From Thermomicrobiales bacterium (GTDB taxonomy: Bacteria > Chloroflexota > Chloroflexia > Thermomicrobiales > JALYUS01), in NCBI GenBank assembly GCA_038238655.1, contig JBBSFO010000001.1, positions 1 through 31,724 on the forward strand: a DNA stretch of 31,724 nucleotides, written 5' to 3'. The notes under the pieces are model-generated. The model had not been told where the DNA came from. It searched no databases and saw only the letters and a program-made list of their open reading frames with translations. The translations under genes were made by a program, and so were the position numbers. Shown here piece by piece: positions 28,084 to 30,992 of the stretch; positions within the stretch are counted from its first letter, which is position 1; each line of letters begins with the position of its first letter.

Positions 28084-30992
28084 CGGAACTGATCGGCGAA
28101 GTTATCGGCAGTTATCGGATCGAGGCCCTGCTTGGCACAGGTGGCATGGCAACCGTCTACCGTGGCACGCATGTCCTGCTCGGCAGGCCGGTCGCGATCA
28201 AGGTGCCGCACCCGCAGTACAGCGCCGCGCCGACATTCAATGACCGTTTCGCGCAGGAGGCGAAAGCGGTTGCCGGCCTTAGCCACCCCAACATCGTCAG
28301 CATCTTCGATTTCGGCAAGCGCGACGATGGCCTGCTCTATCTCGTGATGGAACTCATCACGTCCGGCTCGATTCGTCGGCTGCTCCAACTATGGGGCAGC
28401 AACCCGGACCAGCGCTCGCTCGACGTTGGCGTTGACTTGATGTGCCAAGCGGCCAGCGCACTCAGTTACGCGCATCAACATCGCATCGTTCACCGCGACA
28501 TCAAGCCGGATAATATGCTGCTTCGCGCGCAGGAACCTGGCGGCTCGACTGAGCGCGGAGAGATGCTCAAGCTAACAGATTTCGGCCTCGCGCGTTTGGC
28601 GCAGGACGCATTTACGACGGCGAGCGGCCAGTTGCTCGGCACACCGACCTACATGTCACCCGAGCAATTCCAAGGGGCGGACCCCGATGAGCGGAGTGAC
28701 ATCTATTCTCTCGGTGTCGTGCTGTATGAAGTAGCCACAGGCTATCTACCGTTCGAAATCAAGACGCTCAGCGACGCTGCCTACAAACACACATCGGTCG
28801 AACCGCCGCTCCCTCTGATGGTCCGACCAGATTTGCCACCGCAGCTCGGTAACATCATTTTGCGCTGCCTCGACAAGCGCCCGCAAAATCGCTATGCCAC
28901 TGCGGGTGAACTCCTCTCGGCGCTACAAACGGTGCTGCTCAATCTCCGTCCACTCAATGGTATGGCGTCCGGCACCTACGCCGCACCATATGTGGACGAT
29001 CGCCGCGCCGCGTACGCTCAACCGGTCTATTCCGCACCGCCCGCACCGAGCGCGCCGACCGGTTGGATTGTGCCGCCCCAGCCGAGCAATCCTCCGGGCT
29101 GGAATGTCGCGCCACCCCAGCCGGGTGGCCCATCTGATTGGTATCCACCGCAACAACCGGGCATGTCGTCGTCGCAGCCAATCAGCATGGGGGCATCGCG
29201 GGCGCCGCGCTTGTCGGTACTCGATCGTACGGGTCAGGTCTACCAGGCAATTGATGTGACCGGGCGGGGACTAACAATCGGGAGCGGAAACGACAACGAC
29301 GTCGTCCTGAACGGGGTCGAGATTTCGCCCCACCATATGCGGATGGATTGGGACGGGCAGCGCGTCACCGTCACCGATCTGGGATCCACCTATGGCACTG
29401 CATACCGCGATGTCCCGCTCGCCCCATTCGCGCCGCAGGTGTGGCAGATGGGTGACGCGATCAAGATCAGCGGATACTGGCTCCGCCTCGATCCGCCCGT
29501 ACTCGAGACGATGGCCTTGCCAATGAATGGCGCCTCGAACGGCTTTGCGCCGACGGAAACGGAGTACTACGCGGAACCGACGCCGACGCCCGGTCGGATC
29601 CGTGTGGTGTTGACGGAAGGAAGTCAACTCTCGATCGTTCCGGGCCAGCGCGGAACGGTGAAAGGGACGATTGCCAATCTCGGCACGACCGTTGACCATT
29701 TCCGTCTGAGCATCGAAGGGATGCCGAAGGGGTGGCTCAGCGGCGCGGATCAGGAGTTGCAGCTCAACCCCGGGATGTCCGCCCCGATTGAACTGACCGT
29801 CCACACCGAGCACAGCCCTTCCTGGTTCGCGGGCGAGTATCCGGTGACAGTCCTCGCTCGGTCGCGCGAGCGCCCGCAAGAGACGGGAAGCGCGGACGCG
29901 CTGTTCACGATTCTCCCTTTCTCGGAGAGCGCCCTCAGCCTCGAACCGAGCCGGGTACGCAGCCGGTTCAACGCGTCATACAACCTGACGCTGCGAAACG
30001 ACGGCAACATTGCCGGCCGCTACTCGCTCGTCGGGGAAGATGAAGAAAAGCAACTGAAATACCAGTTCATCCCCCAATCGGTTGATCTCGATCCTGGCAC
30101 CTACACCTCGATTCGTCTCTCCGTCCGGGGGGCGCGCAACATCTTCGGGCGGCCAATCGCCCGCAATTTCACCGTCGGCGCGAGTTCATCCTCGGCGAAT
30201 GCGACCTTGCCCGCGCGCGGCGAATGGTCGCAGCCCGCGATTTTGCCGCCGTGGACGCTCCTGCTCCCCGTCTTTCTGGTCGTCGGCCTGCTCCTGCTCT
30301 GGCAACTAAAGGCACCGGTGATTGATTCCGTCACCATCCAGCCCCAGCAGCCGATCGCGGGCCAGCCGGTGATCCTCACCTGGCACGTCAAGAATACGAG
30401 CCGCGTGGACATCCAGCCGCTCTTGAAGGGGCTCGACCCGAAGACTGGCAATCACGTCTTCCCGAAGGGCTTGCCGAACAACGCAGCGCTGACGCTCGTC
30501 GCGCATGGCACGTTTTTCAAGACAACCGAGAAGCAGATCGCGGTCAGCGTCACGGCGGCGACGCCCGTCCCGACCGTCGAACCCGTCGCGCCTGAGGTTT
30601 CGATCTGGGAAGTAACGCCACAGACGGTCAAACCGGGTGACTCCGTGACGATTAAATGGAAGACGACGAACGCGGAAAGCGTCGAACTGGCGTCGTCTAC
30701 CGGCATGTCTGACACCGTCGAGGCCGAGGGGCAGCGGACGATCAAAGTGACTGAAGCGACGACCTTCAACTTGTCCGCGACCAATCACGGTAAAGTGACG
30801 AAACGCTCGCAGGCCGTAGCCCTCCAGGCGACGACACCTTCGGTCGGTGCGCCCGCCGGCTCGCGTGCCCCCGGTATTCCAATCCTCATCGCAACGCCCG
30901 CCGCTGCGCCGTCAGGGGCTGCGGGCTCACCGCGTCCCGCCGTCATCTCGACGCCGCCGGATCGAGTGGGAACCTTACCGCCGCATGGATAA
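28080..30992 (+). CDS. Transmembrane Hanks-type Ser/Thr kinase: kinase, Pro-rich linker, degenerate FHA, two Ig-like domains, TM, two extracellular Ig-like domains; 970 aa
   Basis: LGTGGMATVY, VAIK, HPNIV, HRDIKPDN (28491), DFG, GTPTYMSPEQ and SDIYSLG all intact. FHA-like LTIGSGND...ISPHH...DLGSTYGT. TM WTLLLPVFLVVGLLLLW (about 30252-30302). ATGA overlap with the FHA-gpI stop. Confidence 0.93.
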   Translation: MTELIGEVIGSYRIEALLGTGGMATVYRGTHVLLGRPVAIKVPHPQYSAAPTFNDRFAQEAKAVAGLSHPNIVSIFDFGKRDDGLLYLVMELITSGSIRRLLQLWGSNPDQRSLDVGVDLMCQAASALSYAHQHRIVHRDIKPDNMLLRAQEPGGSTERGEMLKLTDFGLARLAQDAFTTASGQLLGTPTYMSPEQFQGADPDERSDIYSLGVVLYEVATGYLPFEIKTLSDAAYKHTSVEPPLPLMVRPDLPPQLGNIILRCLDKRPQNRYATAGELLSALQTVLLNLRPLNGMASGTYAAPYVDDRRAAYAQPVYSAPPAPSAPTGWIVPPQPSNPPGWNVAPPQPGGPSDWYPPQQPGMSSSQPISMGASRAPRLSVLDRTGQVYQAIDVTGRGLTIGSGNDNDVVLNGVEISPHHMRMDWDGQRVTVTDLGSTYGTAYRDVPLAPFAPQVWQMGDAIKISGYWLRLDPPVLETMALPMNGASNGFAPTETEYYAEPTPTPGRIRVVLTEGSQLSIVPGQRGTVKGTIANLGTTVDHFRLSIEGMPKGWLSGADQELQLNPGMSAPIELTVHTEHSPSWFAGEYPVTVLARSRERPQETGSADALFTILPFSESALSLEPSRVRSRFNASYNLTLRNDGNIAGRYSLVGEDEEKQLKYQFIPQSVDLDPGTYTSIRLSVRGARNIFGRPIARNFTVGASSSSANATLPARGEWSQPAILPPWTLLLPVFLVVGLLLLWQLKAPVIDSVTIQPQQPIAGQPVILTWHVKNTSRVDIQPLLKGLDPKTGNHVFPKGLPNNAALTLVAHGTFFKTTEKQIAVSVTAATPVPTVEPVAPEVSIWEVTPQTVKPGDSVTIKWKTTNAESVELASSTGMSDTVEAEGQRTIKVTEATTFNLSATNHGKVTKRSQAVALQATTPSVGAPAGSRAPGIPILIATPAAAPSGAAGSPRPAVISTPPDRVGTLPPHG

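Follow-up and report, generated by a model that had tools for sequence, protein, structure and literature searches.

The contractile injection systems of the cytoplasm raise the question of how such a particle reaches the membrane and what triggers it; Streptomyces depends on the protein CisA for this. We address the question with a locus of a Thermomicrobiales bacterium (Chloroflexota), for which the analysed DNA, referred to here as the window, is a whole contig of 31.7 kb (31,724 nucleotides; JBBSFO010000001.1) from a genome bin of 969 contigs and 5.6 Mb. The contig carries the full structural gene set of a contractile injection system and, at its opposite ends, the genes of two membrane proteins, a Ser/Thr kinase of 970 residues (28080-30992, + strand) and a left-edge protein that is cut by the contig end at 457 residues (3-1373, - strand). 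An earlier examination of the letters alone, here called the sequence-only reading, had proposed that the same cytoplasmic immunoglobulin (Ig)-like module precedes the transmembrane helix in both proteins and docks interchangeable outer domains to the injection system. In our analysis the two segments are homologous and probably belong to the published Sco4256 family, and their distribution among related loci points to a role at the baseplate. Overall, this is a known family with new variants, to which new comparative evidence on its role is added.

The kinase protein starts with the Pkinase domain (nucleotides 28113-28898, residues 12-273), which is separated by a Pro-rich linker from an FHA domain (29274-29468, residues 399-463). 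Two Ig-like modules follow, namely M1, a NEW3/PapD-like beta-sandwich (29589-29918, residues 504-613) delimited by AlphaFold2, Pfam and the family alignment A3, and M2 (29919-30233, residues 614-718), which is supported by AlphaFold2 and by a Pfam match to a HYDIN/VesB-like Ig family with an E-value of 1.2e-5. The AlphaFold2 model of residues 504-722 has a mean pLDDT (predicted local distance difference test) of 91 and shows two sandwiches of seven to eight strands each, which are M1 and M2. A conserved ILPPW-type juxtamembrane stretch and a single transmembrane helix (30234-30302; helix residues 725-741) come next, and two extracellular Ig-like modules with a Pro/Ala tail complete the protein (30312-30989; all on the + strand). 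The helix, 7 residues past M2, is the only hydrophobic one in the hydropathy scan, and the juxtamembrane stretch is kept across homologues. Both peptides quoted by the sequence-only reading are present in the sequence at the positions it gave. The span that it assigned to the module (29590-30230) equals kinase residues 504-717, but comprises two modules, of which the left-edge protein has the first only.

The longest open reading frame of the left-edge protein is over-long by 25 codons (window 1373-1448, - strand), which are not conserved, whereas the homologues P0021 and P0022 and the paralogue in the same genome begin at an equivalent MATSPP, corresponding to the TTG at nucleotide 1373, which is preceded by a G-rich stretch. 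This TTG is most likely the start, so that the single M1-type module would occupy residues 1-108 at the extreme N-terminus (1050-1373, - strand; AlphaFold2 with pLDDT 84, hhalign, M1 hidden Markov model (HMM)) with no signal peptide and no M2. A single transmembrane helix was found by hydropathy scan about 20 residues past M1 (933-992, - strand), and the outer part consists of PD40 beta-propeller repeats and a C39-like peptidase (3-932, - strand) truncated by the contig end. Full-length left-type relatives of 895-1615 residues extend further into an SLT lytic transglycosylase and Ig domains. The paralogue mentioned above (L002) is 58% identical and lies on a short separate contig, C574; its open frame reaches 1224 residues, and the 994 residues that were read lead on to SLT and to low-complexity regions rich in Ser, Thr and Gly. 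Two left-type genes are likewise present in related genomes, where a left-type M1 gene is found downstream of the kinase gene, as its immediate neighbour in G444.

The relationship of the two modules lies below the level of pairwise comparison, as BLASTP of the kinase against the left-edge protein gave nothing significant (best E-value 4.3) and Pfam returned no match on the window's left module even at an E-value of 10. At the profile level, hhalign with 4 against 19 sequences gave a probability of 96.3% and an E-value of 1.6e-9 over 81 columns, in a register identical to that of the sequence-only reading. M2 (12%) and the two extracellular Ig modules of the kinase (below 1%), which served as negative controls, were rejected as counterparts of the left module in the same comparison. 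The alignments were then enlarged with sequences from genomes of the same order and phylum to 35 M1 modules without any left-type sequence (A3) and 12 left-type modules (A4), which hhalign matched with a probability of 99.5% and an E-value of 3.2e-22 over 104 columns. The A3 HMM scores all 12 left-type modules at 49-69 bits, the window's own at 50.8 bits (E-value 6e-12, Z = 1e6). A six-frame scan of the whole 5.6 Mb genome with A3 at E <=0.001 yielded three matches, which are the kinase M1 (E-value 8.5e-35), the left-edge module (1.4e-12) and the C574 paralogue. Distant left-type proteins that possess the N-x-G and F-x-L motifs of M1 match both profiles and thereby bridge the two sets. The motif named by the sequence-only reading proved to be the core of the family, with an invariant Trp and a nearly invariant Gly. 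In the predicted structures of kinase M1 and the left module, strand order and spacing are near-identical, as judged from secondary-structure strings and Foldseek match lists. The comparison by profile and structure that the sequence-only reading had asked for therefore finds the domains related, and its proposal of the same module before the transmembrane helix in both membrane proteins stands. The identity between kinase M1 and left M1 in the profile alignments is only 15-17%, and the left-edge M1 is nearer to short Sco4256-like M1s than to the kinase's own M1, which indicates an old paralogy; a recent duplication within the locus is ruled out by these two observations as the origin of the pair.

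The membrane side of the module was derived from the order of the domains. Since kinase, FHA and M1-M2 all lie N-terminal to the single helix, M1-M2 is predicted to be cytoplasmic; likewise, the N-terminus of the left-edge protein would be inside, because the wall-acting PD40, C39 and SLT domains must be outside and no signal peptide is present. We infer that the module lies in the cytoplasm just beneath the bilayer, in agreement with the sequence-only reading. It could still be argued that the likeness of the modules is due to chance or to the generic Ig fold, or that the modules are extracellular, as BLASTP was not significant, the left module has no Pfam match and NEW3-type domains are usually extracellular. 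This explanation is effectively ruled out by the profile E-value of about 3e-22, the score of 50.8 bits, the mere three matches in a 5.6 Mb genome and the bridging sequences, as well as by the single helix downstream of kinase and FHA and the missing signal peptide of the short and left forms. The case of unrelated or extracellular domains, which the sequence-only reading had named as its own refutation, is thus contradicted by the profile matches and, as far as topology can be predicted, by the position of the helix.

Relatives of the M1-M2 segment were found by a segment search in 67 of 401 Chloroflexota genomes, with four genomes flagged as unpublished (G227, G430, G568 and G569) left out of all claims and counts. 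Every locus examined shows the same layout, in which kinase-FHA, FHA or nothing precedes M1-M2, followed by the juxtamembrane stretch, the helix about 10-30 residues after M1-M2, and a variable C-terminus. M2 comes after M1 in 35 of the 36 listed M1-M2 proteins, and the helix after Domain 1, as M1-M2 is called in the Streptomyces literature discussed below, is present in 35 of 37 listed relatives, the other two having no helix in the hydropathy scan. In the short forms, M1 starts at residue 2-5 and there is no signal peptide. The C-termini of the relatives are of Ig type, Calx-beta, Big_13 or PD40 propeller, or have no Pfam match. Together with the PD40/C39/SLT part of the left-type proteins and the ricin domain described for Streptomyces, this bears out the idea of interchangeable outer domains. 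A PD40 propeller also forms the outer part of two complete M1-M2-helix proteins (L077:2978-7001, + strand, and P0215), so that this outer domain is paired with the complete as well as with the half module. Roseiflexus sp. RS-1 has a row of six M1-M2 genes that begins about 2 kb past the Cis12 gene (L036:8873-19911, L037:1-7791), four with kinase and FHA and two with FHA only; one member of this row, WP_011956412.1 (617 amino acids), has no transmembrane helix. A separate subfamily of about 415 residues (L095-L174), consisting of M1-M2, the helix and a C-terminal domain that is conserved and has the motif NFRDLDFH, is spread over 440 species genomes from Actinomycetota, Chloroflexota and Dormibacterota, and in at least 30 of its 54 loci of at least 12 kb there are no fewer than two core genes of an injection system within 8 kb.

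With regard to the fold, Foldseek assigned both models to PapD-like, ASH, MSP, HYDIN, CEP192 and RbmA Ig folds, the matches of the kinase model being 2qsv, RbmA, CEP192, FAP47 and transglutaminase C-termini. Searching the PDB by sequence profile turned up no relative of the module with a solved structure; the best match was the FixG-related 2r39 at an E-value of 1.5e-4. Pfam NPCBM_assoc (NEW3, PF10633) matched the kinase M1 fragment with an E-value of 1.7e-5 and 25.3 bits against a gathering cut-off of 24.4, and was not listed for the whole protein. Weak matches to NEW3 occur in 10 of 12 members of the left family (best E-value 9.6e-5) and none in the window's left module, and the search of the whole genome with PF10633 gave no match. 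The label 'COG1470-like' of the sequence-only reading therefore holds only weakly for kinase M1, but finds no Pfam counterpart in the left module. The top total A3 scores include giant multi-repeat proteins with a hydrophobic N-terminal segment, at about 30 bits per repeat. Three giant A3-matching proteins (P0200, P0204 and P0208) contain 8-31 NEW3-like repeats and have a hydrophobic segment at both the N- and the C-terminus. By its sequence, the cytoplasmic module appears to have branched off from a repeat family that is very large and mostly extracellular.

The Streptomyces member of the family is Sco4256. In Vladimirov 2023, it is described as consisting of Domain 1 (residues ~2-215, with HHpred matches to pilus chaperones, RbmA, 2QSV, CEP192 and FAP47), a helix and a variable third domain, and is labelled 'putative toxin' (PMC10020575). 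According to the same work, Sco4256 was detected by mass spectrometry in 3/3 particle purifications and is present in 90% of the class IId clusters of Streptomyces, also in further Actinobacteria as well as in Cyanobacteria and Chloroflexi, and rarely elsewhere (PMC10020575). Casu 2023 describes Sco4256-4258 as 'CIS-associated effectors' (CIS, contractile injection system), which are single-helix proteins with a common PapD-like N-terminal domain and a variable C-terminus (PMC10066040). The link that the sequence-only reading had drawn to Streptomyces membrane proteins with such a domain was thus essentially right. The Foldseek templates of the kinase M1-M2 are those of the HHpred run published for Domain 1. 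Two genes of Roseiflexus sp. RS-1 (G295) provide the connection by sequence: L036:8873-12034, which encodes a kinase-FHA-M1-M2-helix protein, is WP_011956410.1, and L036:17227-19911, which encodes an FHA-M1-M2-helix protein, is WP_011956413.1. Both accessions are included in the published BLAST table of Sco4256, at 1e-23 and 5e-8, respectively (PMC10020575). The window's M1-M2 is 43% identical to the gene product of WP_011956410.1 (E-value 1.5e-47).

Further support comes from the short forms of Micromonospora, Actinoplanes and Allokutzneria, which score 91-97 bits with the Chloroflexota M1 HMM; those of Micromonospora and Actinoplanes adjoin sheath and tube genes, and the Allokutzneria locus yielded no gene of an injection system. 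The best 80 loci returned for the tight short-form alignment A7 included none from Streptomyces, and the alignment-based protein search returned no named Streptomyces protein. Measured by the features that define the family, kinase residues 504-718 form a Domain 1 of about 200 residues with two PapD-like Ig units in tandem, and both window proteins have a single helix right after it and a variable C-terminus. Both genes lie in or beside a cluster whose class IId label follows published work on Roseiflexus and Streptomyces. Domain 1 departs from the published form in its position and completeness, as it starts at residue 504 in the kinase and is reduced to M1 in the left-edge protein. On this basis, M1-M2 most plausibly is the published Domain 1, and both window proteins would be architectural variants of the Sco4256 family. 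Already published are the family, its locus association and its presence in Chloroflexi, with the functional label effector or toxin. In the parts of PMC10020575 and PMC10066040 that were available, there is no mention of the kinase/FHA fusion, although the listed Roseiflexus accessions are such proteins, or of M1-Cis12 fusions; the one-module PD40/C39/SLT form and the near-complete co-occurrence of kinase/FHA with FHA-Cis12 are likewise absent from these parts of the papers on the family.

The association with injection-system loci was evaluated with the window's Baseplate_J protein (Cis11; 25154-27151, + strand) as marker, which was found in 81 of the 401 Chloroflexota genomes, in 51 of them at E <=1e-50. 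Wherever M1-M2 lies on the same contig as a close Baseplate_J, it is within 30 kb (52/52 cases, including the complete genomes G111, G295, G349, G253 and G400), so that the module is indeed tied to these loci as the sequence-only reading had assumed. M1-M2 is present in 44 of 50 marker-positive genomes (one unpublished genome omitted) compared with 22 of about 350 others, and its genes either follow Cis12 immediately or lie at the cluster's ATPase end. The left-type M1 genes, in seven genomes from two genera of Thermomicrobiales, are found either beside the kinase gene in convergent orientation or up to about 18 kb from the baseplate gene. Taken alone, the part of the analysis that concerns homology, family, topology and linkage is held with high confidence.

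An indication of where the module may act comes from Cis12, the baseplate wedge protein. In the window, Cis12 (Tail_P2_I) is fused to an FHA domain and encoded immediately upstream of the kinase gene (27175-28083, + strand). This soluble protein carries a single M1 at its N-terminus, in the spot that FHA occupies in other lineages, in six public genomes (G013, G331, G194, G185, G219 and G315) that come from three families. The fusions (L082:4727-5647, - strand; L083:3926-4846, + strand; L091-L094) carry Tail_P2_I in the C-terminal part according to Pfam. Their N-termini score 18-43 bits with the M1 HMM, and hhalign of the six-sequence alignment against A3 gave a probability of 98.9% and an E-value of 1.2e-17. 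Of these genomes, G185, G194, G219 and G315 are marker-positive and have no M1-M2 match, and G013 and G331 have weak matches only. Moreover, Cis12 has an N-terminal appendage (FHA, M1 or none) that mirrors the cytoplasmic head of the M1-M2 membrane proteins beside it. Kinase/FHA forms coincide with FHA-Cis12 in 12 loci (the window, L036, L042, L043, L044, L048, L055, L071, L084, L085, L086 and L087), and short forms with plain Cis12 in about 12 loci (L038, L039, L041, L045, L046, L049, L072-L074, L076/77, L078/79 and L080/81); two exceptions, L082 and L083, have FHA-M1-M2 proteins beside M1-Cis12. The loci are related to one another, and the numbers are plain counts without a formal statistic.

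The best explanation of the whole, which we regard as moderately probable, is that the module holds membrane proteins at the baseplate periphery near Cis12 as a docking or signalling element. Such a role is suggested because Domain 1 is the only element common to all locus-linked proteins and can be built into Cis12, and because its carriers are membrane-anchored with the module under the bilayer and the Streptomyces member co-purifies with the particles. Domain 1 would anchor its membrane protein at this site, and the locus would use the module twice, once between the kinase-FHA unit and the helix and once, as M1 only, at the N-terminus of the PD40/C39/SLT protein. The kinase and its FHA domain would thereby be brought next to FHA-Cis12, the second copy would hold the wall-enzyme-like protein at the same site, and outer sensing or wall cutting could be linked to the machine's docking or firing.

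However, the Streptomyces papers interpret these proteins differently, namely as effectors or toxins carried as cargo. According to this interpretation, Domain 1 is a loading tag that packages the protein, and the helix and the variable C-terminus are the toxic payload delivered on firing. In Casu 2023, the sco4256-4258 triple deletion is a phenocopy of system loss with an empty tube lumen, the lumen being empty in ~85% of the particles, and stress-induced death is lost; the three proteins are also toxic in E. coli (PMC10066040). Vladimirov 2023 adds that Sco4256 is present in purified particles and that one third of the homologues have toxin- or lectin-like ends (PMC10020575), and the variable C-termini of the Chloroflexota relatives would fit the pattern of polymorphic effectors. 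Nevertheless, a membrane kinase of 970 residues with FHA and a multi-domain wall-enzyme-like protein are implausible inside the lumen. The kinase/FHA forms track FHA on Cis12 and M1 is fused to Cis12 in six genomes, which points to the baseplate periphery and not to the lumen, and Roseiflexus sp. RS-1 has six such genes in tandem, four of them kinases. We therefore consider cargo loading unlikely for the module; the kinase/FHA, PD40/C39/SLT, M1-Cis12 and co-occurrence findings favour docking or signalling over it. What these findings offer is a concrete alternative to the label of effector cargo, with one domain occurring in a receptor kinase, FHA proteins, a wall-enzyme-like protein and some Cis12.

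It is also conceivable that the Ig domains are a passive stalk or serve self-association, so that they only space or oligomerise the cytoplasmic parts without contacting any component of the injection system, and that the locus linkage reflects the function of the whole membrane proteins. Ig-like tandems frequently serve as spacers, many repeat proteins contain this type of domain, and kinase-M1-M2 genes exist in genomes in which no close system was found. On the other hand, M1(-M2) and the helix are the sole part common to all locus-linked proteins, whose other domains differ completely, and a soluble Cis12 that carries M1 needs no membrane spacer, so that this explanation appears distinctly unlikely.

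Several observations weigh against a docking or signalling role at the baseplate. The contact of the module with parts of the injection system is deduced from gene linkage, the M1-Cis12 fusions and the published mass spectrometry of Sco4256, and the cargo interpretation is that of both Streptomyces papers (PMC10020575, PMC10066040), with the lumen looking empty in the triple mutant. The likeness of the window's M1-M2 to Sco4256 itself is transitive, running through the Roseiflexus proteins of the published table. The A3 profile matches 19,790 representative proteins at E <=0.001, which speaks for a generic domain type. About ten near-complete genomes have a strong kinase-M1-M2 gene and no close Baseplate_J with this query (among them G247, G399, G335, G162, G391 and G367), and three genomes of family f84 possess both module types without a close marker; the module can therefore exist without a system. 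The kinase-(FHA)-M1-M2-helix layout was also noted without a close Baseplate_J in the near-complete genomes G401, G402 and G404, besides L050, L051 and L052 (G247, G399 and G391). Finally, a proteomics table of Roseiflexus castenholzii mat preparations lists sheath and baseplate and no M1-M2 accession, which is a weak negative result.

A more far-reaching version of docking at the baseplate is that Domain 1 is a general membrane receptor of class IId cytoplasmic systems and not a cargo tag, with M1 contacting the Cis12 corner of the baseplate; we put this forward tentatively, as it is rather unlikely in its full extent. M1 would then have become part of Cis12 itself in some lineages, in Thermomicrobiales and Roseiflexus a receptor kinase would gate the dock, its phospho-marks being read by the FHA domain on Cis12, and opening the wall where docking takes place would be the task of the left-edge PD40/C39/SLT enzyme. 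If true, this would supply the missing CisA-like adaptor of the Chloroflexota and Deinococcota systems and re-label the Streptomyces 'effectors'. Even if docking as such were wrong, two unannotated segments of the locus would still be assigned to a published family with defined boundaries.

The remaining genes of the locus are arranged as follows. A BTAD regulator, a Pvc16-like cap protein, an AAA ATPase, a methyltransferase/TPR protein, a DUF4157-type cargo protein and a second Pvc16-like protein precede the sheath, two tube proteins, a protein of 2061 residues, a LysM tube-initiator, the spike, PAAR, gp25 and Baseplate_J, after which the FHA-Tail_P2_I (Cis12) fusion and the kinase gene (28080-30992) complete the order. 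Another open reading frame of the DUF4157/eCIS_core type (31168-31722, + strand) starts 3' of the kinase gene and extends beyond the end of the contig.

Compared with known systems, the window proteins are closest to Sco4256-4258, with which they share the tandem PapD-like Ig Domain 1, the helix directly after it, the variable C-terminus and the location of the gene in a class IId cluster. They differ in that Domain 1 of the window kinase is internal, behind a Ser/Thr kinase and FHA, and that the left-edge protein has the M1 half only and an outer part of PD40/C39/SLT instead of ricin or lectin domains. With NPCBM_assoc/NEW3 (PF10633, COG1470-like), FixG_C and the ASH/MSP/PapD-like Ig domains, the module has in common the type of beta-sandwich and the pattern of N-x-G, buried Trp, L-x-P-G and G-x-Y. 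However, it scores at the Pfam cut-offs or lower and is covered by no single Pfam family, the locus-linked modules reach 50-97 bits among themselves compared with about 25 bits or less to NEW3, and typical NEW3 repeats are secreted, whereas the module here is predicted to be cytoplasmic.

A conceptual parallel only exists to the threonine-phosphorylation pathway of type VI secretion, which consists of the membrane Hanks kinase PpkA with a vWA outer domain, the scaffold Fha1 and the PP2C phosphatase PppA, and whose phospho-signal is thought to control assembly or firing. In both cases a Hanks-type membrane kinase and an FHA protein are encoded with a contractile machine, but in the window FHA sits on the baseplate wedge protein and the kinase carries M1-M2, for which we know of no type VI counterpart. 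Pfam found no vWA or PP2C match among the open reading frames of the window, and no search for a phosphatase was made outside the window.

CisA (Sco4242) of Streptomyces coelicolor is a membrane adaptor required for firing that has been proposed to link the particle to the membrane through Cis11 (Casu 2025, PMC12237407). Like the window proteins, it is bitopic, with a gene beside the baseplate genes, a cytoplasmic N-terminus and an outer C-terminal domain (PMC12237407). In contrast to the folded Ig modules described here, the cytoplasmic part of CisA is largely unstructured, and its outer domain resembles substrate-binding proteins, whereas Ig or PD40/C39 domains are found in the window proteins (PMC12237407). 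There is no sequence relation between them, and the likeness is at most a functional analogy. Roseiflexus has been reported to be without close cisA homologues, which makes the Sco4256 family a candidate for a CisA-like role.

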